A stretch of 64,000 nucleotides of DNA from Scyliorhinus canicula (GCF_902713615.1 NC_052162.1:18348182-18412181), one strand, 5' to 3'. Numbered from the stretch's first letter, positions 33,401-62,539 are shown. A program made the numbers and translations. Notes: a model not told the origin generated them from the sequence alone.

Positions 33401-36400
33401 TTAAGGGGCAATTTAGCGTGGCCAATCTTTCTACCCTGCACATCTTTAGGTTTGTGTGGGGCGAGACCCACGCAGGCACGGGGAGAATGTGCAAACACCA
33501 CACAGACAGTGATCCGGGGCCGGGACCGAACCCGGGTCCCAGGCACCATGAGGCAGCAGTGCTTACCACTGCGCCACCGTGCTGCCCTTAATTTACAACA
33601 AGGATAATTAATGCATTTTACTTCCTGGTTTCCAGTCTGAGAAATTTCCTGCTTTTGATTGGATGCTTACACTTTTTTTTAGTGTACCCAATTCATTTTT
33701 TTCCAATTAAGGGGCAATTTAGCATGGCCAATCCACTAACCTGCACATTTTTAGGTTGTGGGAGCGAAACCCACACAAACACAGGGAGAATGTGCAAATT
33801 CCACACGGACAGTGACCCAGAACCGGGATCAAACCTGGGACATCGGTGCCATGAGGCAGCAATGAAAAAAATGAAATTAAAATCACTTGTCACAAAATAG
33901 GCTTCAAATGAAGTTACTGAAAAGCCCCTGGTCGCCACATTCCTGCACCTGTTCGGGGAGGCTAGTACGGGAATTGAATCGTGCTGCTGGCCTGCCTTGG
34001 TCTGCTTTAAAAGCCAGCTCTTTAGCTAAACCAGCCCCAGTCCTGCCAATGCTAACCACTATGCCACCGTGCTGCCCCTGGATGCTTACACTTCTTCATG
34101 TTTCTGGACATCATGTGCTCTACCTGACTTGGTGCCAGATTTAAAATTAGGGGGAAGGCAAACATATTGCATGAAGATTTCTAAATGTTTGTGGGCAGCT
34201 CTGTCCTGAAGATAAGTGGCCAGAACCATGGTTTTACTGCTGACTGAAAAATCCAGACATTCACTAAATGCATTTTCTATGGGGTGACAGGACAATCGTG
34301 ACAAACAAACGGGTAGTTCACATCCTGTCCTAGCTGAAGGCATTGTAAAGTAGAACCAAAATGGTATAGACTTGACACGAAAATTACAGTTTACAACAAG
34401 ATGTGTACATTGTAATAAATAGTATAGGTTCTCCATACCATCACTAAAATGTATATGGTCCGTGCCATCTTCAACAGCTCCCACTTTTACATCTTTTTTC
34501 TTGCTCTTCTTTTTTGGAATTTTCTGAAAAGGGGCAAATTCTACAATAGCAGGGTACTCCTGACCTATTGGTTGGACGAGAGACAAACACAGGGAGAAAA
34601 AAATAAATGGGCTCTTACAATTAAGCCTTCTTTCAACAAAATGTGTTTCCGTCATCCTAAATTGATAAACAAATAGGATTCAAATGTTAATGCTTCCTGT
34701 TTACATTCATTAGACAGACTATGCAATGATTTTAGTTAGTAAATAAGGATAAGGATACATCCTGGGGATTATCACTGACCAGGAACTGCACCAGCCATAT
34801 AAACACTGTGGCTGCAAGATTTGGTCAGAGGCTGGGTATACTCACCTCTTGACTCCCCAAAGCCTATCCACCACCTACATGGCACAAGTCAGGAGTGTAA
34901 TGGAATACTCTCCACTTGCCAGGATGTGTGCAGCTCCAATAATACTCAAGAAGCTCAACACCATCCAGGACAAAGCAACCCACTTGATTCACAAAGATTC
35001 ATTCCCTCCACCACCGATGTACAGGCAGCAGTGCGCAGCATCTACAATATGCACTGCAGGAATGCACTAAGGCTCCTTCGGCAGCACCTTCCAAACCCAC
35101 CGCTACCATTTGGAAGGACAAGGTGAGCAATTATAAGGGAACACTCTGTTCCCGTCCAAGCCAATCACCACCCGGACTTGGAAATATATCATCGTTCCTT
35201 CACTGTCGCTCGGGCAAAATCGTGGAAATCCCTTCCTAACAGCACTGTCGGTGAACCGGCACCACATGTACCGCAGTAGTTCAAGAAGGCAGCTCACCAC
35301 CACCTTCTCAGGGGCAATTAGGGATGGGCAATAAATGCTGGCCTAGCCAACAAAACACATCCCATGAACGAGATAAATGAATTTTTAAAAATTAAGGTAG
35401 GAGTACATTATGCCTGCTTGGTATTCTTTTTACTGAGTGAAGTAATACGAACTAACATCTGCCCCACGGGAATCAAATTCCTTTCAAATGTGCTGCAAGT
35501 TCAGTTATGGAGCACTAACAGTAAAATATTGTTTATAGTATCAAATAATATTAAAAGGTTCCTTTTAAAAATTAAATTGACTACGAGTCTGGCAGGATTG
35601 ATTTCTATTTGTTGTGCAGCTCCATTCTCTGCTGTGTTCAACATCTGCTGACGGAAATAAAGTAAAAGTAACATAATAAATTGTGATCAATACAAAATAA
35701 AAATAAAAAATTATTTAGAGTATCCAATTATAGGGCAATTTAGCGTGACCAATCCACCTACCTTGCACATCTTATGGGTTGTGGGGGTGAGACCCACGCA
35801 GACACTGGGAGAATGTGCAAACTCCACATGGACAGTGGCTCAGGGTTGGGATCGAACTCAGGACCTCGGCACCGTGAGGCAGCAGTGCTAACTGTTCGGG
35901 GCAGCACAGTAGCACAGTGGTTAGCACAGTTACTTCACAGCTCCAGGGTCTCAGGTTCAATTATTGTCTGTGCAGAGTCTGCACGTTCTCCCAGTGTCTG
36001 CGTGGGTTTCCTCCGGGTGTCCAGTTTGCTCCCACAGTCCAAAGATATGTGGGTTAGGAGGATTGGCCATGATAAATTGCTCTTAGTGTCCAATAAGGTT
36101 AAGTGGGGTTACTGGGATAGGGTGGATGTGTGGGCTTAAGTGGGGTGCTTTTCCAAGGGCTGGTGCAGACTTGATGGGCCAATTGGCTCCTTCTGTACTG
36201 TAAATTCTATGATAACCACTGCGCCACCCTGCAGCCCACGTGATCAATACAATTTTATTTTTAAATCGCATTACTTTACACAACAGTTGCTCATAACTTA
36301 AAAAAAACAGGGCATCATTTAAAAACATATTCTGACTTTTTACGGCAACCCTGCAAAGGGAAACTTTTTATTCTATTAGGATGCTTTCAAAGCATAGCAA

Positions 36401-39400
36401 ATATGATCACAGCAGTGCTAATCACTGCATAATTATTAGATATACATCTATTATATACTACAGGGGGAAATGTCAACAACAATTATTCCTTTAAGCAATA
36501 AAAATATTAAAAAGAATCACTCAACATTCCCTCTCCATCTGTTTTGTCGAAATGGTAAAAGTTTCTTTAGTATGGAGTTTCTTTCCACATCCCCATTCTT
36601 GTCAAAAGATATACGAAAGAAAAATGTTAAACACCCAGATCAGATGGATACACGCAATTCCTCACAATATATATTTCAAAATGCATGTTTGGAGGTATTT
36701 AGTAGAACCTGAAGGAGGAACGCATACGAGAAGATGTCAGCATGCTCACTGATGTACAGAGTTAAAAATACCATACCTTTGCTGTCAATGAAAACGTAGC
36801 CATCAAACTGATCTCTGAAGAGGACAATGTCCTCTTGGTTTTTAAAGTTGATATATGCTCTAGAAAATATGTGCGGGAATAAACTGTGGAAAAATAAGAG
36901 ATTTTAAGGTAAGATTTAAATTGAAAAGGAGCAATGAACTGATTATTTTGTAGGAATGTATTTCAGATTTCCAGCATCCACAGTATATTTTGCTTTTGAT
37001 TTCGTGCCCAAGCTGTACAAGATGGACTCAGTCGTCCGGAGAGCATGCTTGATGACAATATCCAGGTCTGGATGACAAGTGGCAAGTTACATTCGCGCCA
37101 CACAAATGCTAGGCGATGACCACCTCCTACAAACAAAAATCTAACCATCACCCCATGACATTCAATGGCATTACCAGCGCTGAATCCCCCACAATCAACA
37201 TCCTGGGCGTTACCATCAAACAGAAACTGAATGGGACTAGCCATATTAATACTGTGGCTCGTGTAACTCACCTTCTGACTACACCAAAGCCTGTCCACCA
37301 TCTACAAGGCACAAGTCAGGAGTGTAATGGAATACTCTCCACTTGCAGCTCCAACAAACACTCAAGAAGATCAACACCAGCCAGGACAAAGTAGCCCGTT
37401 TGATTGCTCCCCATTCCACAAACTTTCAATACCTCCACCGACGAACAGTGGCAGCCATGTGTACAATCTACAAGATGCACTGCAGTAACTCACCAACTGA
37501 AGGGAATCAGCTATTTCTGATAGGTGAAAGGCCATTTTAAAGTAAATATTAAGGCCCAGTCTTTAATACCCATTTTTAAATAAGGATTTCAGTATTCATA
37601 ACCTCAGGTCATGACAAAAACAATTTAAACAGAGCTACAAAGCTTGACACATCCACAAACTAGTTGAAGATAGGGGCAACATTTCTACTGACAATGTGAA
37701 CTGACTTATTGTTCTAACGAACAGATTTCATATTAAGAAATGAGCTGTACGTAATCAGATCAAGGTTAAAATAAGCACCATAGCAATATGAAGCCACTAT
37801 TGTTCAGAATATGAATTAAATGGAAGTCAGCAGAAAACCAGTAAGAACCAGACACGATTACAGCACAAAATCACATTCCATAGCACACACACAAATATTC
37901 AAACATGAAACATTTAAAACTTATTTTGCACATTGAGGATTGACAGTTAACTATCCAATCAAATGAATTTGAAACTCACCCAAACCAATTAGGACGACAT
38001 AGAGGTATGGACAGATGGCCTCAGACTGATAACATTTTCCTTAAATATGAGAGTTCGGACAGCCATTTTCTATCCAGGATCACTCATCCTTTGATCTAAC
38101 TACTTGCTATCCTTATTTTCGTATTTTCACTCTAACTCTTGAAGTTTGCGCAAGCTGTTTTTCTTTAAGCAAGAAACCATTTCTGTATTATTTTTGAACG
38201 TTAAAATTGTTTCATAAATTACTTCTCCAAAGTCTTTTGCTGGCAAGGTTTTATTGAGACTTTATTTAAGGTTCTCTCAATTGTAATCAGCGGATGCAAT
38301 AAAAGATTCTTACTTCGCATCCGAGAAGCGTAACTCAAATTTCTACCGAGTTTTAAAGTATATGCGAGACTCCACTTGAACCATGTGGCAGATGTCTACA
38401 CCAAGGTTCATTAGACAGCACCTTCCAAACACACGACCACTGCTATCTAAAAGGACAAGATGTGGAGATGCCGGCGTTGGACTGGGGTGAGCACAGTAAG
38501 AAGTCTTACAACACCAGGTTAAAGTCCAACAGGACTTGAAACAAACCTGTTGGACTTTAACCTGGTGTTGTAAGACTTCTTACTAAAAGGACAAGAGCAG
38601 CAGATACCTGGGAACCCCACCACCCGAGGTTCCCCTCCAAGTTTGGAAATATATCACCGCTCCTTCACTGTCACTGGGGCAAAATCCTGGCACTCCCTCC
38701 CCAACAGCACAGTGGGTGTCCCTACACTTCAAGTACTGCAGCGGTTCAAGACGACAACTCACTACCACCTGCTGAATGGCAACCAGGGATGGGCAATAAA
38801 CGCTAACCAGTGACGCCTACATGCCGTAAATCTCTCAGTGGCGTTCCAAGATTTCATCAGCTGCCAACCCTATGAATATTGCACTACCTTAGTACTTGAC
38901 CAATACCACGGGAGGTTGAGGCCATCAACGCAAATAAAAAGAGTTCAGGGAAACAAAGGACAACCCCATCTGATTTTGAAGGCAGTTTGATCATGTGGCC
39001 CTTGTGATTTTTAGAAAACGATTTGACACAATTCTGTTCGAAAAACTACTTACCTTGAATTGGTAGAAAAAAATTCAAAGTAATCATGCTCAGGCAATGG
39101 GGCAAGTTGCTCTTCTAACTGTTCTTTTGTTAGACTGGGAGGCAACCGACGGATCACCACCTAATGGGGTAAAGGCAGTTAAAATATATATCAGCTACTG
39201 CTTTAAAAAATACATACAATGCTAATGTTAGAAAATTTTCAAATGGCTTTAATTTTAGGAGTAGATTGCTCCAATTAGACATCCAGTGAACTACTTTGTC
39301 TGTGAAAATTCAACCTACATAAACAGAAGAGCAAACAATATGATTATTGCAGTTGTGTATCTAGTGTGATAAGTTCTCTAAAGAGAGACATGTTGCCAAA

Positions 39401-40876: not shown

Positions 40877-40978
40877 ATGTGGTACGAGATCCTGCCGGGC
40901 CTCTGCATCATGGCCGGCTGCCTGACGGTGCCCGGACTCGCCACCATCTACATTCACAGGTGGACAAACGGCGGCAAG
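40877..40978 (+). CDS. NDUFA1: NDUFA1 exon 1
   Basis: MWYEILPG...NGGK, 102 nt, donor gtaatc. Confidence 0.96.
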
Positions 40979-43900
40979 GTAATCCCGGCGGCTCGGCTGC
41001 AGTTTATAAAGCGCCTTTCCCAGGATTGGCAAGTCGCCAGGATTGGCCTGGAGACCCTGGGCACTGAGGGTCAATCCGCAAGACAATTTGTGTGTGCAAC
41101 CCCGGGGGAAAAGGAATCAGGATTTCAAAAATAATAATTGTTTTGTTTGTTTTCAGTTTATTTAAACATTGAAAATGGGGAGAAAGAAATTTGGCTGACA
41201 GTCTGGTTATATCCAGTTGGATAATGGGTCTTTTTGCCTCAGTGCAAGAGACCCATGTTCAGTTCTGACCGTGGGTGATTGTGTGCACATTCTCCCCGTG
41301 TCTGGGTTTCCTCCAGGTGCTTCGGTTTCCTCCTACTGTTTGGGTGAATTGGTCTTGATAAATTGCTCCGTAGTGTCCAAAGGTTAGGTGTGGGGGATTG
41401 GGCCTTGATAAGGTACTCTTTCAGAGGGTCGGTGCAGACTCGCTGGGCTGAATGGCCTCCTGCAATGTAGCGAATGACAGCAGTGCATCACAAGGATGAA
41501 TGTTTTGGCAGAATAATGGTTTGAGTGTGGGGACGAGTCATGTGATGAAACCTCCAGAAATACATTTAATCACAGATGTCGACTTGTCTGGGCATTAGTT
41601 GAAAAGCAGCCTCTAGAAGGCGCAAGGAGTGTGATGGACTATTCCTCATTTGCTTGGATTAGTGCAGCTCCAACAAAACTTGGGAAGCTCAACGCCATTG
41701 TGAACAAAGCAAACCTGACTGGCACCACATTGGCCACCTTAAACATTCATTGCCTTCATAATTGGTGCACAGTGGTAGCAATGTGTATCATCTACAGGAT
41801 GCACTGCAGCAACTTGGCAAAAGCTGATTTGACAGCACCTTCCAAACCCATGATCTCTACCACTTAGAGGGACAATGGCAACAGAAGCACGGGGACACCA
41901 CCAAGCCACTCACAATCCTGACTTTGAACTTTATTGTGGTCCTTCCACTGTCATTGGGTCAAAACTCCTAGAATCTTCCCATCACTAGGTGAACATTCAA
42001 AATATGGCTCCCTACCACATTCCCAGGGGCAATTAGGAATGGGCACAAATGCTAGGCTTGGCTGCAATATAGGCATCCCATGCATTAATTTTTAAAATTA
42101 TCATTTTGGTCTTCTCATCGACTCCTGTGGGGTGAGAAACCTAGAAGATAGGAACAGGAGAAGGCCATTTGGTCCTTCGCGACGGCTCCACCATTCGTCA
42201 CGATCATGGCTGATCGTCCAACTCAATAGTCTAATCCTGCTTTCTCCCTATAACCCTCGATACCATTTGCCTCAAGTGCCATAATCTAGCCGCCTCGTGA
42301 ATTTAATCAATATCTTAGCTTCAACTAATTCCTGTGTTAATGAATTTCACAGGCTCACCACTCTTTGGGTGAAGAAATGTCTCCTCATCTCTGTCCTAAA
42401 TGGTCTACCCTGAATCCTTAGTTTGTGACCCCTGGTTTTGGACCCACCATCGGGAACATCTTCCTTGCATCCAGTCTTATCTAGTCCTGTGAGAATTTTG
42501 TAAGTCTCTATGAGATCCCCCCCCTCATTAATCGGCGCTCCAGCGAAAACAATCCCTAATCAAGTCAATCTCTCCTCCATACATCAGTCACGACATCCCT
42601 GGAATCAGCCTGGTAAACCTTCTCTGCACACCCTCGAGAGCTAGAACACCCTTCCTTAGAAAAGCACGGAAGGACAGTTGCATCACAGCTCCAGGGTCCG
42701 AGGTTCGATTCCCGACTTGGGTTACTGTCTGTGTGGAGTCTACACATTCTCATGTCTGCATGGGTTTCATTCGGGTGCTCCGATTTCCTCCCACAGCCCA
42801 AAGATGTGCAGGTTAGGTGGATTGACCATGCTAAATTGCCCTTGGTGTCCAAAAAGGTTAGGGGGGGTTACGGGATAGGAGACGTGGGCCGAGGACAGTG
42901 TTTTTCAAACTTTTTTTCCCAGGATCCACTTTTGCCAACTGCCTAACCTTCGGGACCCACTTGATCGCTGACACAGATATGATGGGCCGAATGGCCTCTT
43001 TCTGTGTTGCAAAACAACATGACTCCATGAAAGTAGAGATATCTTCAAAGTGAAGAGGGCAGAGGAGAGCCACAAGGTTGTTGTCAATGTTTGAATTATT
43101 AAAAAAAACAAGATTTACATTTCTATTAGCACCTTCATAACTAAATGAGTATAAAGTGGTTTGCAATCAATGAAGTACAGTCACTGCTGTGATGCCAATT
43201 TATGCACCACAAATCCCACAAACAGGAATGTGAAAAAGCCAGGAAAAATGGAAAAATCCATTGACCTTGGGAGATATTCTCCAGTCGCCGGGCGAATGCA
43301 GTCGGAGAATACCACTCCAATCTGTTTTTGTGATGTTGATTGAGGGTTAAATGTTAATGAGGACATCAGGGATAACTCCCTGCTCTTATCCAATGTAGTC
43401 CCATGGAATCATTTACATCCACATGAGTGGCAGAGCCTCCATGAAACATGGTAACTGGAAAATGGCATTTCTAGCAGGGCAGCATCCCTGCAGTTCTACA
43501 CTTAGCCTAGATATGGAGGTGAACCCACGCCCGTCTGATGTAGAGACGAGAGCATTACCCATTGAGCCATGCCTTTTTTTTTTTAAATTTAGCGTACCCA
43601 ATTATTTTTTCCAATTAAGGGGCAATGTAGCGTGGCCAATCCACCTAACCTGCACATCTTTTGGGTTGTGGGGGTGAAACCCACGCAGGCACGGGGAGAA
43701 TGTGCAAACTCCACACAGACAGTGACCCAGGGCCAGGATTCGAACCCGGGTCCTCAGCGCTGTGGGCAGCAATGCTAACCACTGTGCCACCGTGCTGCCC
43801 TGAGCCATGCCTAATATAGAGGAGACACTAGAGAAATTTAGGCTGAATAGCCCTTAATCTTAAAAATCATCTTTCAGGAGAAGATGCAGTATGCTAATAA

Positions 43901-45519
43901 ATGGCTGGGGAAGAGGAATCCAGAACATTACTGTAAATTATGCTGAGATTAAGACAAAGGGATACAGGTTTAAACTCGGAAAAGCTATTTTTGGGATTGA
44001 TATCAATATTTTTTTCACGTACAATGCAAGATGATTTTGCGGGGTGGGGTGGGAAGGGTGCAGTCAAAGGCAGCAAGTTTCCATAAAATTCTGCGGGTTC
44101 CCCTTCAGTAGCTGTTGTGAAAGAGTCCAAGTATGATTATTCTGTGGCAGATTTAATCTGGTAAATGCAATGAGTTTTACTGCGGGTGAGAATTGGCACT
44201 CAGACCCAGAAATAAAGACGACAGATTTCTCCAAACCCTGTTATCCCTCCCACATCTAGAAGTCATGCGTAAACTCTCCAACCTGGTGCTGGGCTTCCCA
44301 AAAGCTCCTTCCTACGAGAGAACCGAGAGAGAATGTAAGCGGAGGGCTTCAGGGAGAGGATCTGTGCTCACTTTTCTATAGAAATGGGAACTGAGTCTCT
44401 TGGTGGATTTACCTGAAAAGCGACCCAATGTCCCGTTACTCAGCTTCAGTATTGTTCGTGTGTTGGTTCCAAATTACAGCTAACCATCTGTTTGTGATGT
44501 CTGTCAACCTGCCAGTCCACTCTGCTTCTCATTCCTGGGCCATACATTCTCCCGTATCTCACTTTCATCGAACTTTTTCTGTTTGCAATCCTGCTGATCT
44601 TGCCCAGTAGTTGGGATAGCTATATTAATTTTAGAATGCGCCGCAACCCTTTTTATACCTGCCCGCGACCCACCCGCGGTTCACGACCCCTACTTTGAAA
44701 AAGCTTGGCTTAGGAGACGGTTAAAGAGTGGAGATGTGGGCTTAAGTAGAGTGCTCTTTCCAAGGGCCGGTGCAGACTCAATGGGATGAATGGCTTCCTT
44801 CTGCACTGTAAATTCTATGATTCTATAAAAGGAGACCAAAACTGCACACACTATTCTGGGTGTGGCCTGGAATGCCCTGTATACAGACCCTGTATAATTC
44901 CAACAACACACCCCTGTTCCTGTACTCAAAAAGTCTCTCAATGAAGGCCAACATACCATTTGCCTTCTTTACCGCCTGCTGCACCTGCATGCTTAGCTTC
45001 AGTGGTTGGTGCACAGGACACCCAGGTCCCTCTGCACACTCCCCTCTCCCAATTTACAGCCGTTCAGGTAGTAATCTGCCGTCTTGATTTTGCTTCCAAA
45101 GTGAATAACTTCACATTTATCCAAATTAGACTGCGACTGCCATTGATTTACCCACTCACCCAACCTGTCCAGATCATGCTGAAGGATCTCTGCATCCTCG
45201 TCACAATTCACCCTGTCACCCAACTGGGTATGGTCTGCAAACTTTGAAATGTTACATTTTGCTTCCTCGTCAAAATCATTAATATATATTGTGAATAGCT
45301 GGGGTCTGAGCACCGAACCCTGTGGCACCCCACTAGTTGCTGCCTGCCAATTTTAAAAGGACCCGTTAATTTGTACTCTGTTTCCTTTCTGCCAACCAGT
45401 CTTCTATCAACCTTAATACACTTCCCCCAATCCCATGTGCTTTAATCTTGCACAATTTCTTATGCGACACTTTATCAAATGCTTTCTGAAAGTCCAAATA
45501 TACCACATCGACTAGGCGT

Positions 45520-45571
<52 letters not shown>

Positions 45572-48500
45572 ACACACACTTTGTCAATCTTCAAAGACTC
45601 CCAATAGATTTGTCAAGCATGATTTCCCCTTCATAAAATTCCCACTCTGTCTGATCCGGCCACTGTTTTCTAAATGCTCCACTCTAAAGTCCTTGATAAT
45701 AGATTTGAGAATTTTCCCCACTACTGACGTTGGGCTTACTGGTCTATAATCCCTGTTTTCTCTCTACCACCCTTTTTGAATATTGGGGTGACATGAACTA
45801 CCCTCCAATCTGGGGGGACTGCTCCAGAGCCTATAGAATCCTGGATGATTACCACCAACGCATCCACTATTTCTACAGCCACTTCCTTAAATACTCTGGG
45901 ATGTAGATTATCAGGCCCTGGGGATTTATCAGCCTTCAATCCCATCAATTTCCCAATACCATTTCTCTACTAATATTGATCTCCCTCAATTCTTCCCCCT
46001 CACTAAATCTTGCATTCTCCAACATTTCTGGTATCTGATTTGTGTCCTCTTTTGTGAAGACAACCAAAGTATGTATTCAATTGCTCAGCCATTTCTTTGC
46101 CCCTATTATACATTCCTCTGTTTCTGTCTGTGGGGGATCTACATTCATCTTCACCAGTCTCTTTTTCTTCACATACTTATAGAAACTCTTAGTGTCAGTC
46201 TTTGTGTTTTCTGCAAGCTTACTTTCGTACTGTATTTTCCCCTTAATCAATCCCTTGGTCCTTTTGTGCTGAATTCTAAACAGCTCCCAATCTTCAGATC
46301 TATTATTTTTCTTGGCCAATCAGTATGCTTCTTCCTTGGATCGGATACTAGCTCTAATTTCCTTTGTGAGCCATGGATTGGCCCTCTTACCCATTTTGCT
46401 TTTGTGCCAAACAGTAATAAACAGTTGTTGCAGTTCCTCCATGCATTCCTTGAATGTTTCCCATTGCCTATTCACTGTCATCCCTTTAAGTAACTCTCCC
46501 CAATCTATCAAGGCCAACTCACGCCTCATATCTTCATAGTTTCCTTTATCAAGATTCAGCACCCTAGTCTGAATCAACTACTTCACCCTCCACCTTGATA
46601 AAAAAAATTCTATCATGTTATGGTCGCTCATCCCCAAAGGATCTCGCACAGTTAGATTGGTAATGATTCCCTTCTTATTGTACAGTATCCAGTCAAAGAT
46701 GACCTGCTCTCTAGTTGGTTCCTCCAGACATTGGTCAAGAAAACCATCCTGTATACATTCCAGGAATTCCTCCTCTACATTACTGTGGCTAATTTGATTT
46801 TGCCCAATCGATGTGCAGATTAAAATCGCCCATGATCGCAGATATTGCCTTATCACGTGCATCTCTAATTTCCTGTTTAATGTCATTCCCAACATCACCA
46901 CTGCAGTTTGGGGGTCTATATATGAAACCCACCAGTGATTTTTGCCCCTTGGTATTTCTTAACTCTACCCGTACAGACTCCACATTGTCAGAGCTAGTAT
47001 CCTTTCACACCATTGTGTTAATTTCCTCTTTAACCAGCAATGTCACACCACCACCTTTTCCTTTTTGCCTTTCCTTCCTAAATACTGACTACCCTGGGAC
47101 ATTCAGTTGCCATCCCTGGAGCCAAGTCTTTGTAATCCCAATTATATCGTACCCGTTTACATCTATCTGTAATTAGTTCATTTAGCGATTAGTTCATCTA
47201 CTTTATTGCAAATGCTCCGCGCATTAAGGCTCAAAGCTTGTCTTTTTAATATTGTTTGTCTTGCTCCCAATATTTTTCGCTACAGCCCTGTTTGAATTTT
47301 GTCCTTGGTTTCTCTGCCCATCACTTTTCTTATTCCCCTTTCCACCTTTTATTTGAGCATGACTGAAGCTTTGCTATTCTTAAAGGGAATTAAGAGATGG
47401 ATGTTCTTTCTGCAGAATCTAGAAACGAGAAGTGGGAACACCAATCAATAGGTAAAAGTAACTTAAGTAACTACATAACAATTATATTCAACTAAAATAG
47501 CTTAATTCTCTTTTGAAACTTTCAAAAAGGAATTTTCACAGATTTCTAATTGAATAGAGGATTACTAGATGGGCTATTTTTCATGCCGATGTTATGTTAT
47601 CAGTGTTTTCTCAAAGTTGCAGGGCTGCGCTGCAACCTAGATTTTTCAGTGCACAAGTCTCCCTCTTTAAGTAATCATGCAAAAAGGAAAGGGCCCACAC
47701 AAATAGACTGTGCCCTCCAAATGAAGCATATTTTCGTTCTAGTCCAACCTTCTAATGGAAAGGAGTAAAATTGGATGCATGTCAAGAAAATTAGGAATTG
47801 TTGCCTAGGACCACCCGACCATGTTCTTGTCATGCACCCAACCATGTTAAGTATTAAAACCTGTTTAAAAGCCTCAGTTGGAATTGAAACCACAGAGCTG
47901 GGTTAATGAAGTGCTCCATCAATAGTACTCTTGTCTGCTGGAGCTATATGAGAAACCCTACTCGACATTTTCATTGATTTTCCCAGACACGTAGACACAC
48001 ATATAATAATAATCTTTATTAGTGTCACAAGTAGGCTTACATTAACACTGCAATGAAGTAACTGTGAAAAGCCCCGAGTCGCCACAATCCGGTGCCTGTT
48101 CGGGTACACAGAGGGTGAATTCAGAATGTCCAAATTACCTAACAGCATGTCTTTTAGGGACTTGTGGGAGGAAACCAGAGTACCCAGAGGAAACCCACGC
48201 AGACACAGGGAGAACGTGCAGACTCTGCACAGACAGTGACCCAAGCCGGGAATCGAACCTGGGACCCTGGCGCTGTGAAGCAACAGTGCAAACCACTGTG
48301 CTACTGTGCTTCCATTTTCAATGAAACAGCTGAGGTCGAGAATTCTCCACTTTGGCATTCACAAGCTTGAAGTATAATCTTATCAAGCAGGGGAGACAAG
48401 GTGGCGCAGAGGTTAGCACTGCTGCCTCATGGTGCTGTGGACCCGGGTTCGATCCTGGCCCCAGGTCCCTTTCCATGTGGAGTTTTCACATTCTCTCTGT

Positions 48501-49416
48501 GACTGCGTGGGTCTCACCCCCCACAACCCAAAAGATGTGCATGGTAGGTGGATTGGCCACCCTAAATTGCCCCATAAGTGGAAAAATAAAAGAAAGGTGC
48601 CATGTGGCTTAGTGTCAGATTTCTGGTGTTCATGTGAAGGGCCTTGTGATGTTTAACTACATGAAAAGTGCTTATGAATGTAAATTATATATAGTTCTCA
48701 GCTGGAACAGAGGAATATCGTAAGATTTCTCTCTACAATTGACAATCTAATTTGCTCTGAATTTATTTGCAGTATTCAACAGCAAAGTAACAATTTTCAG
48801 ATTTAAATATATCCCTGCCCCTTTTCACCTATTAGATTTCTGGCAGTTAAGAAAGGGATAATCTGAAGACTGTGGCTGAAATTCGCCCGTAACAATATCA
48901 GTGGAAGATACCTTTCAAAATCACTGGAGTCGTACAGTTCTTGGCAATAAGATTAAAGCTGTACATTTAGGTTTGTCAGTAGTTTTTAAAAATACAATCG
49001 TTGGCATTTATTAAATCTGCCTGCACTGTAAATTCTATGAAATCAAGGGTTTACTTTACGCATAAACAATAAAGAGCAACTATTTTTTTTAAAATCCCGA
49101 TAACGTTTTAATGATTCTTTGTTTAGGAGAAACGGACTGCTCGTTTACCTTATCATTGGTCCCTCCTGGATCGAGACAGAAGAGTGTCTGGTTGCAAAAC
49201 CTATTACAAATCAAAGGTAAATGCTTGAGCATAAGAGCTGATGTTGCTTATTCTGACCATCACTTTTAATGCTTAAAATCATTCACATTTCATGTTTTAA
49301 AAAAGTTACCAAGACTAATTATGATTTGAAATAGTCTTTGTTTTATTGGTGTAATTGTGGAAACTTATGCCCTATTTAACTCTTCTGTTTTACAGGGGTT
49401 AGAAAACATTGACTGA
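40877..49416 (+). CDS. NDUFA1: NADH:ubiquinone oxidoreductase subunit A1 (MWFE), whole coding span, 70 aa
   Basis: Exons 40877-40978, 49127-49216 and 49396-49416 give [70 protein letters not shown]; all introns GT-AG. Confidence 0.97.
42140..47340 (-). mobile_element. Long CR1-clade LINE (endonuclease + RT remnants) in NDUFA1 intron 1, split by a nested insertion at 42664-44827
   Basis: IYRPPN and IMGDFN (APE endonuclease), [24 protein letters not shown] peptides; 3' tail at 42140. Confidence 0.85.
42896..44707. mobile_element. hAT-like TIR-bounded segment with internal filler
   Basis: CAGTGTTTTTCAAA ... TTTGAAAAAGCTTG (11/14 inverted match); 8-bp flanks GCCGAGGA/GCTTAGGA. Confidence 0.5.
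48003..48310 (-). mobile_element. Chimeric V-SINE carrying the tail shared with the second SINE family
   Basis: V head followed by GTGGCGACTCGGGGCTTTTCACAGT...TGTGACA..(ATT)n; second copy 52670-52968 (+). Confidence 0.75.
49127..49216 (+). CDS. NDUFA1: NDUFA1 exon 2
   Basis: [30 protein letters not shown], 90 nt. Confidence 0.96.
49396..49416 (+). CDS. NDUFA1: NDUFA1 exon 3 coding part
   Basis: ttttacag|GLENID*. Confidence 0.95.
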   Translation, partial: GLENID

Positions 49417-49930: not shown

Positions 49931-49936
49931 TTTATT
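49931..49936 (-). terminator. Candidate poly(A) signal of the Reeler gene
   Basis: AATAAA on the minus strand downstream of the TAG at 50054. Confidence 0.55.
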
Positions 49937-50053: not shown

Positions 50054-50148
50054 CTAATTTTGACATCCAGTAATCATCAAGGAACATAAAAACAGTGTAG
50101 TGATGATGCTGATTCCATAGACCATCTTCACAGCACAACATGCAATTC
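50054..50148 (-). CDS. Reeler gene terminal coding exon
   Basis: Strong acceptor tttttttttcactccag, phase-compatible, GIACCAVKMVYGISIITTLFLCSLMITGCQN*; AATAAA ~120 nt downstream. Confidence 0.7.
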
Positions 50149-53100
50149 CTGGAGTGAAAAAAAAATTACATAATTAATGCTTGATGTTTTGAAATCCTTA
50201 TAGGAAGAAATTAACAGCCTTATTTAAAAAGTACATATCAAGCCATGGTCAACACATGGAAGTGGGAACTGCAAGTATCCTTCTGAGTTACATATTATGA
50301 GAAGTCAAGGTGAAGATTCATAGTGTAGGGAATCTCCAAAGTTTTCTTCCTATTCCTTCTTGGGAGGTGGGCTTTGATGGTAAGGTCAGCATTTATTATC
50401 CATCTTTAATCTTCCTTGATAGAGATATTGAATCCTCACTGTTTTCAGGTGATGGCAGTGGTGAAGCACCTTCTTAAACCCTTGTGGTACTTATGGTGTA
50501 GATACACCCACGGTGCGTTAGGGAAGGAGCCGCAGGATTTTAATCCAGCAACTGAGAGGAACAGTTCTATAGTTCCAAGTGGGCAGGTTACGTGGAGGAG
50601 AACCTGCAGATGGTGGTGTTCCTGTGTGTCTGTTCCCCTTGTTCTTCTTGATGGTAGAGGGGGTGGGTTTGGAAGTTGCTGGCAAAGGACCCTTTCAGTG
50701 CACCGTTTAAATGGTAGACACTGATGCTGAACAAGCAGGCTGCTTTGTTCCTTGAGTGTTATCGGAGCTGCACTCATCCAGGCAGGTGGAAAGTATTCAA
50801 TTACACTTGTGCCTTGTAGATGGTAGGCAGGGTTTGGAGAGTCAGGAGGTGAATCACAGCAGATTTCCCAGCCTCTGACCTGCTCATGTTGCCACAGTGT
50901 TTATATGGCTGGTCTATTTTGTTTCTGGTCGATGGTAGCCCCCTGGATGTTGATGGTGGGGAATTCAGCAATGGTGATGCTGCTGAATACAGACATCTCC
51001 ACTTCTGATCTTGCATTGGAGGGAAGGTCATTGATGCAGCAGTTAAATATGGTTAGGCTTAGAACAGTACCCTCTAGAATCCCTACACCAATGTCCTTGG
51101 GAATTGGTGCTAGAGGTGTAAACAAGAAATAATAATAAGGGCTGAATCTGCTAGTAATGTTTAGTTTGACACCGGTATAAAAGCTTGGAAATTCTAGAAG
51201 GAAAGATTGACTGAAGGAGACTGAGTTTCCATCATTTTCCCATTTTTGTGGAAGACTGATGAGTATAAGTTTCAGCACAGATGTAGAAGGATGAGGATTA
51301 TGTAAAATAGCGTATTGAATGCTGAGGAGGACACCACAGAGAATTTTACTAGTATTCATTAAATAACGACAAAAACAAAATGAGATGGGAAAGAGAGATT
51401 CCAGCAGAAAGTGAGAGCTGGATCACTTAACAGGCAGAGTTTTGTTTGTACTGTATCCTAATTAACACTGTGAGGGATAATGTCCTGGAACTATTGCTGC
51501 TACCCACTGTTCTCTTGCAGTTGACAGGAATGAATGAAATGTCAACCGATAGACGCATATCAGAGTTTAATGAGGAACATAGAACAGTACAGCACAGAAC
51601 AGGCCCTTCGGCCCTCGATGTTGTGCCGAGCAATGATCACCCTACTCAAACCCACGTATCCACCCTATACCCGTAACCCAACAACCCCCTCCCTTAACAT
51701 TACATTTTAGGACACTACGGGCAATTTATCATGGCCAATCCACCTAACCCGCACATCTTTGGACTGTGGGAGGAAACCAGAGAACCCGGAGGAAACCCAC
51801 GCAGACACAGGGGGAGGACGTGCAGACTCCGCACAGACAGTGACCCAGCCGGGAATCGAACCTGGGACCCTGGAGCTGTGAAGCATTTATGCTAACCACC
51901 ATGCTACTGTGCTGCCCAACACCGTAACAGAGAAAGATGTGTCTCTGATGTCTATTGCTATTGCAGGTGGTAGGTTTCAAAATGCTTTTTTAAAAATTTA
52001 GAGTACCCAATTATTTTTTTTCCAATTAAGGGGCGATGTAGCATGGCCAATCCACCTACCCTGCACATCTTGATGTGCAGGGTAGGTGGATTGGCCTTGC
52101 TAAAGTCTCCCTCAATTGGGAAAAAATAATTGGGTAGTCTAAATTTATTGGAAAAAAAAATTTAGCGTACCCTGCACATGAGGCTGTTTAGCACAGGACT
52201 AAATTGCTGGCTTTGAAAGCAGGCCAGCAGCATGGTTTGATTCCCGTAACAGCCTCCCTGAACAGGCGCCGGAATGTGGCAACTAGGGGCTTTTCACAGT
52301 AACTTCATTTGAAGCCTACTCGTGACAATAAGCGATTTTCATTTCATTTCATCTTTGGGTTATGGGGATGAAACCCACACAAACACTGGGAGAATGTGCA
52401 AACTCCACACGGACAGTGACTCAGAGCCGGGATCGAACCTGGGACCTCGGTGCTGTGAGGCTGCAGGGCTAACCCACTGCGCCACCGGGGTGCATGTTTT
52501 TAAGGTAAGGGGCAGGAGAGTTAGGTGGGATTTGGGGAAAAGCTTTTTCACCCAAAGGGTAGTGGGAATCTGGAACTCGCTGCCTGAAAGGGTGGTGGAG
52601 GCAGGAACCCTCACAACATTTAAGCATTTAGATGTGCACTTGAAATGCCATAGCACACAAGGCCATGGGCCAAGTGCGGCACGGTAGCACAGTGGGTAGC
52701 ACAGTTGCTTCACAGCTCCAGGGCCCCGGATTCGATTCCCGCTTGGGTCACTGTCTGTCTGGAGTCTGCACGTTCTCCCTGTGTTTGCGTGGGTTTCCTC
52801 CAGGTGCTCCGGTTTCCTCCCACAAGTCCCAAAAGATGTGCTGTTAGGTGAATTGAATATTCTGAATTCTCCCTCTGTGTAGACAAACAGGTGCCGGAAT
52901 GTGGCGACTAGGGGCTTTTCACAGTAACTTCATTGCAGCCTACTTGTGACAAGATTATTATTATTATTAATAAAGTGTTGGAAATAGGTATTAGAGTGGG
53001 TTGAAGGGTCTCTTTCTGTGCTGTAAAACTCTATGGGTCTATGTAAAAACTTACTCCAGTTTCCATTATCGTCCACTCACCTTTGGTTAAAGAAGGTGAT

Positions 53101-56100
53101 TGGACATTAAGCCAGTAGATTTCACGAGATTGAGCCACCGTTGCCCTGTCATGAGAAACAAAATATATCACCACGTGTAAGTTCCCCTCCACGCGGTACA
53201 CCATCTTTAATGGGAAGTCTGGAACTGCTTCCCTAACAGCACTGTACCTACACCACATGGGCTGCAGCAGCTCAAGAAGGTAGCTCACCACCACCGTCTC
53301 GCGGGTAGTTCGAGAAGGGCATCAAATGTTGGCCTTGACCAAATGTAGATAAAAATTGGTCTTTGTGGGGGCTTTCTGTCTGCACATTGGCTTCCACGTT
53401 CCCACATTACAACTGTGATTACAGTTCAAAATGTACTTCATTGGCTGTAAAGAACTTTGGGATGTGCTGAGGTCATGAAGTGCAGGTCTTGCTTTTTCTG
53501 TCACTGATCCAGGACCCCTGACCCTGGCGTGCTGTATAAAACTTTTCTGTTTTTGTCACCTTTTGGTTTGAGATTATTTTCTTTCCCTATTTCTGTAATT
53601 TTTTTCTCTTTTTAAAAAAAAAATTGTTTTTCTCCACCAGAAAATGTCTTTACCTGACACAAGCTGCTGTTTTGTCTACTTGCTACCACTGGGTGGCACC
53701 ACAAACAGCCATCTTGACCATACCTCCAGAACGCTCTCATTTGGAACCAAACCTTCACAGTTTCACACTAGTACTGCACCAAATACAGTTTTGTTATAAG
53801 GACACAAAATAAATGTACATTAACTGGAGGAAGTTCCTGTATGGACAGAGTTCCTTTTGGCCTTTCTGATGACCATACAGTGATATGTAACTTAGAACTT
53901 ACACTCTGTGTATGGAAATTAAATTCAGTACTTACGTGAATGTAACAGCATCAGGACAGGCTGACTCAGGGGGGATCCACACAAATGTGGTGGAACTATT
54001 CTTGGGGGCCGTGCTTGAGTGGGTAACTGCAGCTCCTAGATTTCCAAAGCACTAAATTAAAAAAAAATAGTAAAATACTGAAATACATACACAAGTGGCA
54101 AAATAGAACAAATTTTGAAGGAAACTAATTTGAGCCATGTGTTGTTTTAGTCTGGACTTTACCTGTAACAGTTTGGTGTTTTCAGGTGGGTCTTGCCAGG
54201 ATCCTAGTGGAGTGGTGCTTCTATCTTTTCGAGCTTCCAATATGAAGCCACGATATTGCGGCCCCAGTATTTGAACTGAATGTAACGTTAATATATGTGA
54301 TTAACATTCTGTCCACCTTTCTTTTTGAGCCTTTTAGATTAACCTGATGGCTTTAGTACCTCTGTACTGGACTGTTCACAAACTGTATGCAGAATTCAGT
54401 AACAAGCCAGTTAGAATTGCCAACTTCAATTAAATATAATTCCAGGAGGTTTAATTACGTGACTTGCCCCCACACTCCAGCCATTAGTCACCAACCCATT
54501 CATTCTTGTGACGTACTGGCTTCCTAAGGACAAAAAGACTCATTACTGAATTGGTTGATGCTTGACTGTCACTAAAGTCCTTCAGGGAAGGAAATCTGAT
54601 GTTCTTACCCGGTCTGGCCTACTTGTGACTCCAGACCCACATGAAGCTGCGGTTGACTCTTAAATGTCCCCCGCTGAAATGGCTCAGCAAACCACTTGGT
54701 TCAAGGGCAATTAGGGATGGGCAACAAATACTGGCTCAGCCAGCGACACCCATATCCCAACAATAATTTTTTTTAAAGACCCCCTGCCCCCCTACGTTTT
54801 CAATATTTTTATATCTGGTAAAGAGAAATGTTTTTTTTAAAACTATCTTTTTTAATGCCCAATGATTTTTCTGCAGGGTTGCCCACAATAGTGTCCGAGA
54901 GGTGTTCAATTCCTGGAGACTCCAGGCAAATCCTGGAGTTTGCAACCTTAAAGCCAGCGTAGACTTGTGGAGGCAACTGGCCTCCTTTTGTGCTGTGAAT
55001 TCTAGAATGCTGCTTAAGTGACGTGGCTAATGCATTGAGGTGTGCAAAAACTGTGTTCAGAATTATTGTATAATGAATTGCCGTCTGATCTAACCAGCTC
55101 CAACATGGGCATGTTGTTTGGGTACAGATTATTCCATTGTGTTGAATAAATATAAATAGTGTTAATAATTATTAGGTTTGTAAGATTGTTATGGTTTGGA
55201 ACTGTGCCTTTAATGTAAAATGAAGGAAACCATGCTCTTCTGAAATCTCCCTGGCTGGCTTAACTGTTAGAGGTTAAAAGGAGCCTGGATTGCTTTATTG
55301 GGAGAATGATACAGGTGTGTATGCTTGGAGACAATGGCAAAAACCTGTGTGTTAACAATGGATAGACTTGAGTTTCCAGAATCCAGAACAGTAAATGGTA
55401 GTACTTTAAACTGTCCATTTAATTCCAAGATAAGAGAGAGTTGGGCTCTCATGGATAGCTAATCAGCATCTCTAACTGCATACAAGACTCATGTGATTCA
55501 CATTGTCATAATGTCGATTTTGGAGATGGGAAGGGTACATAGGAAAACATTGTGTTTTCAGGCTACAGGCATTCCCAAAATATCACTGAATATCAGAGAT
55601 GGGTAATCTGCCAGGGTCTGGGTGCGAGAGATTAGCCAGAGGCTGAGAGTTTCTATTGTTCACCACACATAGATGTGGGTAGAAAGTTTGTACTTTAATT
55701 GGAAAGACCAAATTTGTGAGGATTTAAAACGAGGCTGGAAGATTTGCCTAGTTTTAGCCAGAGGGAAATTCACATCCTGAAATACAGTTCTGGAATTAAA
55801 GATTTCCAGGCTGGGAAAGAAAAATATCTTGGGTAAACCCTCAGGAACTATGAATCATTCTGATAGCAGGAGAATTTAATATCTACTTAAAGATAGTGTA
55901 TTGTCTATCTGATAGTGAGTATTTCTGATTGTTAAAAGTTTTGTTCTATTGCTTGAAGCATAAGTTGCCGACAAAAATAGTGTTTAGCCAATAATGCTTT
56001 TAGCCTATTTGATACAGTAAATGTCTTGAAACAGTGCTTTCCCAAATGTTTTCCCAGTGTGACCCTATTTTAATGCCTTAAACTTTGTGTGACGCCAGAC

Positions 56101-57805
56101 TGAAAATTTGGAGAGGAGGGTAGTAGAAGAGTTTTTTAAGTAAGGCGGGTGGGAGGTAGGGGGGGGGGGGGGGGGGGGGGGGAGGAGGAGGCTTCAGTTG
56201 TTGCCTGGGGCTGGGGATTATTTATTTTTATTTGTTTATGGGATGTGGGCATCACTGGCTGAACCAGCATTTTTGCCCACCCCTAATTGCCTTTGAACTG
56301 AGTGGCATGATGGGCCGTTTCAGAGGGTATTTAAGAGACAACCACGTTGCTGTGGGTCCGGAGTCACATGTAGGCCAGACCAGGAAAGGATGGCAGATTT
56401 CCTTCCCTAAAGGAAAGAAATTCAAGTATTCTGACTGATTATTAATATAATGGCATCCTAATTATCACTCTTACAAAAATCAGGATTATTGGCACAATTG
56501 GAAAATTACTTTAGTATGGTAGGATCCTGAATATTGATGCAATAGGACTCTGATTATTAATTGATGATTCTGGTTATTAATGTATTAGCATCATGATTAT
56601 TGAAGCAACAAGCAACTGCTTAATGCAATAAGAATTTAATGTAATTAGATCCTGATTATTAAGGTATCGGGGCACTGATTATTTATGTAATAAGATCCTG
56701 ATTGTAGAAGCAATGCAATTAATGTAATTTTATCTTGATTATTAATGTAGTCGGGTCCTGAATCTTAAAGTAACAGGACTCTGATTATGGATGTATAGGA
56801 ACCTGATTATGGATGTATAGGAACTGATTATGAATGCCTGAGCATTGATGTACTGGGATCCTCATTATTGATGCAATAGGATTCCAATTATTAATGTAAA
56901 AGAATCATGATTATTCCTGCATTATGATCCTGATTATTGTTGCAAGATTATCTTGATTTTTGAAGAAATAGGTTTTCTATCAGTCGTCAGAGAAGCCAAG
57001 CCCACCAACAAAAATACACAAAGGTTTCAAGGGTCTCACAGCTATTAGAAATCACGGTAGCCATTGCTGCCTCAGATCTCACAACTTCCAAAGCTCGTCT
57101 CGAGTCCACTGGGGCTTGTTTTGGAAGCTCTCTCTTAAAACATGAAATCCTGCCCTGGCATCCATTCAGCTATTAACTCGAAGTTTGAATTTCTTTTCAA
57201 AAGTTATCAATCTCGATGGGGATCGTAACAACAGTGAGAAAGTCTCTGCCTGTGTAGTCCAGGGAATAGTGGGCTAATTAAGGGACTCACCGATTATTTT
57301 GCTCTTCGGATCAACCTCATTTGACTTTAAATTATTGTGGTGCAAGCAGTTAGTCTCTGACACTTAGTTTGAACCAAGGTTTTCATACACACACAGTTTG
57401 CTCTTTAATAGGCCCCCTCCCCCTACATCACATTTTACTGATTGATGTGCCAGGCCGTGCTTTTTTAAAATTGCTCATTTGATTTATAATGGATGCCATG
57501 AGGCATGCCAAATTTGTCTTGTTAGAAAAGCCAATAATAAATTATCTTTGCAGCAGCAGCAGCAGCAAGTGAGTAACTCCAGCATTACACAAAAGCATAC
57601 CTTGTTTTGGTATTCCGGGTTGGTAGGTGCTCGTTCCAGTTTCGATGGTGTAAGGTGCAGTGCTGGACTGTGGCAAAACTCCCGAGTGCCTGGGCATCAT
57701 ACTTTCGCACACAGATGAAGGTGCACCAGTACTGAAGCCTCGGCTCAAACTGAGAACATTCAAAAAGACAATGGAACACACAGTAAGTAAGATCCTGCAG
57801 ACCAT
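50054..57805 (-). CDS. Reeler-domain-only protein (FRRS1 N-terminal-like / defense-protein-like), 197 aa, signal peptide and hydrophobic C-tail
   Basis: Exons 57601-57805, 54163-54275, 53936-54051, 53081-53145 and 50054-50148 join in frame (594 nt) with GT-AG sites. Reeler motifs C-x2-M-x-P-x-H, PY-x-I, YRGFILEAR, G-x-W, C..AVTH, W-x-PP, F-x-ATV..YW. Confidence 0.85.
51577..51917 (-). mobile_element. HE1-like V-SINE with CR1-type tail
   Basis: Closely similar to the copy at 10168-10514. Confidence 0.85.
53081..53145 (-). CDS. Reeler gene coding exon 4
   Basis: ATVAQSREIYWLNVQSPSLTK; gacag/gtgagt. Confidence 0.88.
53936..54051 (-). CDS. Reeler gene coding exon 3
   Basis: CFGNLGAAVTHSSTAPKNSSTTFVWIPPESACPDAVTF; tttag/gtaagt. 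Confidence 0.9.
54163..54275 (-). CDS. Reeler gene coding exon 2
   Basis: VQILGPQYRGFILEARKDRSTTPLGSWQDPPENTKLLQ; ttcag/gtaaag. Confidence 0.9.
56430..56965 (+). repeat. Degenerate AT-rich minisatellite (~20-22 bp unit)
   Basis: Recurrent CCTGATTATTAATGTAATAGGAT-like units. Confidence 0.75.
57601..57805 (-). CDS. Reeler gene coding exon 1
   Basis: MVCRILLTVCSIVFLNVLSLSRG (signal peptide) then FSTGAPSSVCESMMPRHSGVLPQSSTAPYTIETGTSTYQPGIPKQ; donor AAG|gtatgc. Confidence 0.88.
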
Positions 57806-58141
57806 TTTTGCTGTTCTATACCTGACGCTTCCAATAGGAATACTGCAAATTTTTTGCAAGGTGCACTGGTGAGGTTTGCTGCCTGAGATGTTTTGCTGAC
57901 TCATTCATGATAATAAAGTCCTTTCTTTTCTTTATCTCCATACGAAGCACACATGAAATTACTTTCAACGAGGTATTGCTTGTTTCTGAGTTCCATTTCT
58001 GAAAATATTTTAATCATTGGTTAAATGTATTTTAAAAAATTTGAATTTGTGAAAATACTTCAAAGAAGAAATATTTTCAAATCTCAGTATGAAATATACT
58101 GAAGCAATTGTTAAAGAGAAAACCTCCAAGAGGAAGGCTGC

Positions 58142-61430: not shown

Positions 61431-62539
61431 AGGAATTTAAACTGTTTTTAAAAACTGATGGGAAGGTCTCTGATGGGGATGGCCCTGTTAAGGGTCTGAA
61501 GGTTGGTCTCTGTTCGGTATCTGATGGGACGTCTCTGTTCGGGGTTTGATGCGGGGTGGGGTGGACAGGATTTGTGATGTGGGGGGACCCTCTAATGGAC
61601 TTTGGGGGCACACCTACATTACATACTTACCCCCTTGACCCACCACAGGGTCCACTGCGTCAGGGCCATGGTTGAAAACACTTGCACCAACAACGCCCAT
61701 GTGAATCCCGACTGAGAGGCCTGGAGCATCACGGGGACGGGGAGAATCCGTTTCTAGCCCGTTAATCGGATTCAAATGGGTTCAGATGACTCATTTGCAT
61801 CCTGCGGTCAGTAGGTCATCCTGTAGCCCAGTACTTTAAAGGAATTCTCCACACAGTAAGTTTTCTTTATTACTTACAGTGACAAACTCAATAGTGAACT
61901 TGTGACCATCCCATATATAATAACTGCAAAGAAAGATCCATGGCAATGATCAGAACAGCTGCTGGTTGTGAACGCATGGTTGGAGTTTATAGTTTCTGTG
62001 CATATTAAATATAACAGCTCAGTAGGATAGCAGAAGTGAGACCAGAGTTGTATTTATTGGTTTGTGGAAGTAATGTATTTAGCATATTGTTTGCAGTGGA
62101 AGAGCAGCATGAATGATACTTTTGTCCAAATTGACTTATTAAGCCATTTTAGCTCCCATTAAGTTGTATTCTGCTGTTACGTGTGGAGATGGTAATTTTA
62201 AAAACTCAATTTCCTGACATAAATCAGATGAATGCACACTGGTACTAGGATGTACGGTGAGGGACTGCTCTGTGGTCTGATACTAGAATCAGTATGCATC
62301 ACACTTTAATACTTTGATCATCGTAACATTTTGTTATCTGTTAAAACACTAGTCTTCTCTTAACATCAGTTTTCATTAATGTTTCTTCTTGACGTATTAG
62401 AACTTAAAGAGTTCCCTTGATGTCCCAATTAAGCACAGTGAGCAAGTAGAATAGTCGATAAAATGGAGGCTGTAAGCAGAATGTTGCCCATAACTGTTCC
62501 CAACCAACAACAACTTGCATTTATTTATTTTTATTCATT

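Follow-up and report, generated by a model that had tools for sequence, protein, structure and literature searches.

What does a vertebrate gene do when its product consists of a single Reeler domain and little else? The question is raised by a locus of the catshark Scyliorhinus canicula, which we analysed in a window of 64,000 nucleotides (GCF_902713615.1 NC_052162.1:18348182-18412181; window positions are counted from the first letter of this whole stretch). On its minus strand, from 57805 to 50054, the window holds a five-exon gene for a protein of 197 amino acids, here called the Reeler gene. The gene is real, and chance as its source is excluded. It is an uncharacterised vertebrate branch of a known domain family and is conserved across non-mammalian jawed vertebrates. 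Its product is predicted to be a surface protein held by a glycosylphosphatidylinositol (GPI) anchor, and by analogy with arthropod relatives we propose, with moderate confidence, that it binds microbial polysaccharides at barrier epithelia.

Gene structure and existing annotation

Splice analysis of the window joins the five exons into a frame of 594 nucleotides with a single N-glycosylation sequon (N124-S-S). The four introns measure 3325, 111, 790 and 2932 nucleotides, all run from GT to AG, and their phases are 1, 0, 2 and 1.

57601..57805, minus strand: coding exon 1, with the ATG, the predicted signal peptide (residues 1-23, 57805-57737) and the start of the Reeler domain with Cys33, Met36 and His40
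54163..54275, minus strand: coding exon 2, Reeler core
53936..54051, minus strand: coding exon 3, with Cys107, His117, the sequon at N124 and Cys138
53081..53145, minus strand: coding exon 4, final Reeler strands; absent from RefSeq isoform X2
50054..50148, minus strand: coding exon 5, predicted GPI signal with the omega candidate Cys170 (50140-50138), spacer, hydrophobic run and stop
49931..49936, minus strand: candidate polyadenylation signal AATAAA, about 120 nucleotides past the stop, from the sequence only
61878..61909, minus strand: alternative first coding exon of RefSeq isoform X3, with a canonical donor, spliced to an acceptor within exon 1 at 57750

A sequence-only reading of this DNA had proposed the five in-frame exons, the 197 residues and the sequon. 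The splice analysis confirmed them, and those of its peptide motifs that lie within single exons all map to the minus strand. The same reading had called the gene hidden, which it is not, because RefSeq holds an identical model: XP_038632180.1, 'putative defense protein Hdd11 isoform X1', is the same 197 amino acids letter for letter. A homologue search with exon 1 as the query led to S. canicula RefSeq proteins, and a cluster look-up gave three isoforms (XP_038632180-182), all named 'putative defense protein Hdd11'. The gene is already public in RefSeq and the gene model itself is not new; the entry was generated automatically, and its name was carried over from elsewhere. In isoform X2 exon 4 is skipped and exon 5 is then out of frame, and isoform X3 starts upstream at 61909 and has a shorter, weaker leader. 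The expectation that the gene would be mislabelled 'ferric-chelate reductase' failed for the catshark gene itself but held for 4 of 118 named relatives (among the best 120 of 136 matches of a profile search) and for 3 more elsewhere.

Intron 2 (54052-54162, 111 nucleotides) reads in frame, its only stop being the TAG of the acceptor, and its retention would give a truncated protein. Intron 1 holds a degenerate AT-rich tandem array with a unit of 22-23 nucleotides (window 56430-56990).

Domain, fold and tail of the protein

The only Pfam family that matched the whole protein was Reeler (PF02014), at residues 33-156, with an E value of 7.9e-30, a score of 104.5 bits against a curated cut-off of 21, and positions 1-130 of the 131-position profile covered. 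Exons 1, 2 and 3 also match this family separately and are ordered along the profile (1-31, 46-79 and 83-118 of 131). An AlphaFold2 model built from a 20-row alignment (predicted local distance difference test score 86) shows a beta-sandwich between an N-terminal and a C-terminal helix, with residues 169-195 forming one helix. The best 8 structural matches of this model in the PDB are human F-spondin Reeler chains (Foldseek E value 1.2e-9; template modeling score 0.72 over the target), with an identity of 19-23%; a sequence search of the PDB with the protein gave no match. Across 90 relatives, Met36, His40 and His117 are conserved at 99-100%, and Cys33 and Cys107 are near-invariant among relatives.

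Hydropathy marks residues 1-22 and about 167-195 as hydrophobic (peak of the 19-residue window, 1.96). Residues 1-23 are predicted to be a signal peptide cut after Gly23, on the basis of their hydrophobic core and of small residues at -3 and -1 in relatives. A hydrophobic end with neither a cytoplasmic tail nor basic residues behind it is the pattern of a GPI signal and not of a transmembrane anchor. The full tail is present in 84 of the 90 scored relatives; 79 of these 84 have a hydrophobic 13-mer, 68 end at most 6 residues beyond the hydrophobic run, and just 3 have at least two Lys or Arg behind it. The sequence of the tail is not conserved among relatives, which matches the expectation for a GPI signal. 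The omega site, the spacer, the terminal hydrophobic run and the lack of a cytoplasmic tail were all matched by pattern, and the best omega candidate by a loose rule, applied with no control, is Cys170-Cys171-Ala172, 27 residues from the end. The tail is predicted to be a GPI signal, whose C-terminal 27 residues would be replaced by the anchor at or near Cys170. Thus the signal peptide and the GPI-like tail of the sequence-only reading are both supported, the former by hydropathy and relatives and the latter by the pattern across the full-tail relatives.

Two disulfides are predicted, Cys33-Cys107 and Cys138-Cys170. Cys138 and the linker Cys are both present in 26 of the 76 scorable rows, both missing in 47 and discordant in 3, and the pair occurs in 12 of 13 rows of the second shark group described below. 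Their co-occurrence suggests the second disulfide, and Thy-1 is a precedent for one Cys that is disulfide-bonded and the GPI site at once. Unlike the catshark protein, teleost members mostly lack this pair.

Phylogeny and taxonomic distribution

The domain tree has 45 rows, a subset of an earlier quick tree of 101 rows. In it the catshark gene groups with its counterparts from sharks, amphibians, reptiles and ray-finned fishes, and the branching follows the species tree; support is 84/62, rising to 92/74 with lamprey. The FRRS1-like rows form their own clade (100/98), the insect-like rows lie outside the vertebrate Reeler clade, and FRRS1, REELD1 and insect Reeler proteins, against which the sequence-only reading had wanted the gene placed, are all separate from it in the free tree. 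A forced grouping with the REELD1-like locus was rejected by the approximately unbiased (AU) test (P = 0.012), and with it the idea that the gene is a genome-duplication twin of REELD1; the different intron set and the separate locus on C3 likewise speak against orthology.

FRRS1 resembles the Reeler gene in its N-terminal Reeler domain and in introns 1 and 3, which lie at matching positions. It differs by its DOMON and cytochrome b561 domains, its separate clade and its intron 2, which follows the conserved Cys in both catshark FRRS1-like genes and precedes it in the Reeler gene. These two genes (Reeler-DOMON-b561) lie on C4 at 29.03-29.05 Mb (minus strand) and 29.37-29.40 Mb (plus strand), about 320 kb apart and divergent. 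With the back halves of three FRRS1-like proteins as queries, tblastn found no DOMON/b561 exon in the window, in the following 200 kb or in 80 kb around the C14 paralogue described below; both C4 loci were matched many times and serve as positive controls. This agrees with the claim that the gene has no reductase module, and its 3' end is also confined by NDUFA1 on the opposite strand. REELD1 shares with the Reeler gene a signal peptide and one Reeler domain; it differs in lacking intron 2 and in lying on C3. The C3 locus (G000:C3:193611576-193633600, plus strand), also without the second intron, is called REELD1-like on the basis of its motifs, without a match to a named database entry.

A second catshark gene of this kind lies on C14 (G000:C14:158030032-158042880, minus strand); it is single-Reeler, has the same five exons and phases, and ends in a GPI-like tail. 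In the tree, all orthologues of this copy come from cartilaginous fishes (clade support 98/96). The C17 and C14 copies have in common a phase-0 intron immediately before the conserved Cys that is not found in the FRRS1-like and REELD1-like genes; C14, the UPF3A chromosome, also carries the second UPF3 gene, 93 Mb from the paralogue; and a joint clade of the C17 and C14 groups was not rejected (AU test, P = 0.22). Together these make it plausible that the two copies come from a vertebrate genome duplication. A Pfam search of the catshark genome missed both copies, so counts of paralogues are lower bounds. Single-Reeler proteins of bichir, paddlefish, lungfish, anchovy and newt (P0035, P0041, P0042, P0054 and P0018) belong to neither group and may point to a third single-Reeler lineage in vertebrates.

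With isoform X2 as the query, 50%-cluster representatives yielded 1230 matches, and the same short architecture is common among the best 150 of them. Among the best 120 of the 136 profile matches are sharks, rays, a chimaera, gar, bowfin, many teleosts, amphioxus and tunicates, and the tetrapods there are 7 amphibians, 11 squamates, the tuatara and 3 turtles; a separate listing of relatives adds lamprey, lungfish, bichir and paddlefish. The zebrafish protein si:dkey-251i10.2 (LOC562682) is 46% identical to the catshark protein; it and the 'putative defense protein 3/Hdd11' models of fishes, amphibians, squamates and turtles have the same architecture and fall in the same clade. A cluster of the ESM Atlas under the name 'putative defense protein Hdd11' has 225 members, mostly chordate. 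The orthologues in bony fishes, amphibians, squamates and turtles, the lack of matches in birds and crocodilians, and the second cartilaginous-fish paralogue go beyond the sequence-only reading, which had claimed absence from mammals. None of the 118 named matches among the best 120 of 136 comes from a mammal, a bird or a crocodilian. Xenopus and coelacanth are likewise not among these, and the search relies on shared words, so the absence is suggestive, most strongly for the heavily sequenced mammals and birds. The lineage is old, and it probably disappeared once in mammals and independently in birds and crocodilians. The literature searched, which lay outside subscription journals and most supplements, yielded no paper on the vertebrate members, on the predicted GPI anchor or on the loss of the gene.

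Proposed function and alternative explanations

We propose that the protein would be secreted, glycosylated and GPI-anchored to the outer cell surface, where it would bind polysaccharides of microbes at barrier epithelia, for instance those of skin, fin or gill. By analogy with arthropods, binding of bacteria and polysaccharides would limit adhesion or biofilm, with the protein either tethered or shed into mucus. PcReeler of crayfish, which binds both bacteria and polysaccharides, suppresses biofilm in the gills (PMC10149183). Tick PIXR and Noduler (PMC5543126) and a shrimp single-Reeler protein (PMC12113285) are likewise described as binding bacteria or polysaccharides and curbing biofilm. 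Like the catshark protein, the arthropod proteins Noduler/Hdd11, PIXR, PcReeler and LvReeler have a signal peptide and one Reeler domain only. The microbe-binding role is drawn from these relatives and from fish fin expression data: a salmon fin transcript called 'hdd11', tied to the family by name only, falls about 25-fold under sea lice (PMC7177938). The zebrafish si:dkey-251i10.2 protein has been detected, and its level drops in copper-induced inflammation (PMC7271515).

Antibacterial proteins with a single Reeler domain are known from work on arthropods. If the vertebrate branch is alike, a barrier-defence protein abandoned by mammals and birds is present in fishes, amphibians and reptiles. 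It would then matter for aquaculture, given the strong suppression of the salmon namesake by sea lice. The present gain is a cleaner definition of the family, the predicted GPI anchor and the pattern of gene loss. A wider version is speculative and doubtful: vertebrates would have an ancient, as yet unnamed family of GPI-anchored Reeler proteins that act, tethered in skin and gill, as pattern receptors against biofilm. The family would be the vertebrate counterpart of Noduler and PIXR, with two genome-duplication copies in sharks and two losses, one in mammals and one in birds and crocodilians.

Several results weigh against the microbe-binding proposal. The arthropod analogues are described as secreted, and the insect-like rows, about 160 amino acids long, have no hydrophobic tail and lie outside the clade; no vertebrate member with a tested function was found in the literature. 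The zebrafish and salmon data show a decrease, not an induction, under challenge. A proteomics study of shark skin mucus (PMC10707392) does not list the protein in its text and one supplement. Support for the jawed-vertebrate group (84/62) is moderate, a forced grouping with FRRS1 is disfavoured only at the borderline (AU test, P = 0.052), the omega rule is loose, and the co-occurrence of the cysteines traces to about one evolutionary loss in ray-finned fishes rather than to many independent events.

The RNA data belong here as well. Among runs recorded as RNA, none was listed as containing this stretch. Four catshark raw-read runs, unlabelled for tissue and sampled at 1, 32, 34 and 32% of reads, were mapped to 52960-57950; there was zero depth on exon 1 and no exon-exon joint, so the junction reads that the sequence-only reading had looked to were not found. 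The mapped region excluded exon 5, the 3' untranslated region and NDUFA1 and so held no positive control; with tissues unlabelled, this null result says little about a tissue-restricted gene and is not evidence of silence. Most of the RNA signal in the region is repeat-derived. Three runs show a low, one-stranded cover of 1-4x over window 53100-55130, on introns and exons alike, which may be NDUFA1 read-through, antisense to the Reeler gene, provided that the libraries follow the usual strand convention. The text of a salmon skin atlas (PMC10627282) makes no mention of the gene.

Of the alternatives, the one that survives best is a role in adhesion or matrix binding in epidermis or pigment cells, where the GPI-anchored protein would use its Reeler domain as F-spondin and Reelin do and would have no immune function; we regard it as possible but doubtful. 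The F-spondin Reeler domain binds heparin and matrix, and the fold of the catshark protein matches it, but the identity is low and the sequence search of the PDB was empty. Relatives by name in cichlid fin pigment-pattern data (PMC5012078) and tree-frog skin chromatophore data (PMC11640764), together with the down-regulation in fish, would also suit such a protein, but the single-Reeler proteins tested in PMC10149183, PMC12113285 and PMC5543126 are antibacterial.

An accessory for handling metal or haem at the surface, equivalent to a stand-alone FRRS1 Reeler domain and working through the invariant Met and His, is improbable. The conservation of these residues, the presence of the same domain in FRRS1 and the FRRS1 grouping that was not firmly rejected are in its favour, but no DOMON/b561 exons lie nearby and intron 2 differs in its position relative to the conserved Cys from both catshark FRRS1-like genes. 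The same Met and His are also present in single-Reeler rows from distant invertebrates, and their role may therefore be structural.

We consider it quite improbable that the tail stays uncleaved as one membrane-spanning helix, or that the working form is simply secreted. The hydropathy peak and the single helix of the AlphaFold model would fit the former, and several database models lack the tail, but the protein has hardly any cytoplasmic tail and lacks basic stop-transfer residues, and several of the tailless models stop at or just past an exon boundary, as expected if those gene models are incomplete. A fragment that is silent or in decay, such as a shortened duplicate of FRRS1 or REELD1, would suit the missing junction reads but is very improbable, as the frame and splice sites are intact, full-length orthologues occur across jawed vertebrates, the zebrafish protein was seen by proteomics (PMC7271515) and the REELD1 grouping was rejected.

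Genomic neighbourhood

The sequence-only reading had placed the Reeler gene beside NDUFA1, and the neighbour is confirmed by a Pfam MWFE match on its first exon.

40877..49416, plus strand: NDUFA1, exons 40877-40978, 49127-49216 and 49396-49416

The two genes lie tail to tail, the NDUFA1 stop at 49416 being 637 bases from the stop of the Reeler gene. On C17, the contig that holds the window, the order is UPF3 (minus), NDUFA1 (plus), the Reeler gene (minus), an AKAP14-type gene (plus, 18,457,839) and an NKAP-type gene (minus, 18,473,066). These flanks have the same order as human Xq24, UPF3B-NDUFA1-AKAP14-NKAP, which is not known to contain a Reeler gene. The identification of zebrafish si:dkey-251i10.1 with ndufa1 was rejected: PMC8624534 lists them as separate genes, so adjacency of the Reeler gene to ndufa1 is not established for zebrafish. 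Two chimaera rows on one scaffold had hinted at a tandem Reeler copy, and none was found in the 200 kb beyond the window.

The UPF3B-type gene (window 22100-39160, minus strand) is head to head with NDUFA1 (40877, plus strand); the outermost coding exons that were matched are about 1.7 kb apart. Inside it lie LINE-like reverse transcriptase fragments (Pfam RVT_1; window 30900-33200, minus strand). At window 2730-6330 there is a long, strongly skewed G/A-rich simple repeat, which gives rise to spurious Pro/Gly frames of 1100 amino acids.

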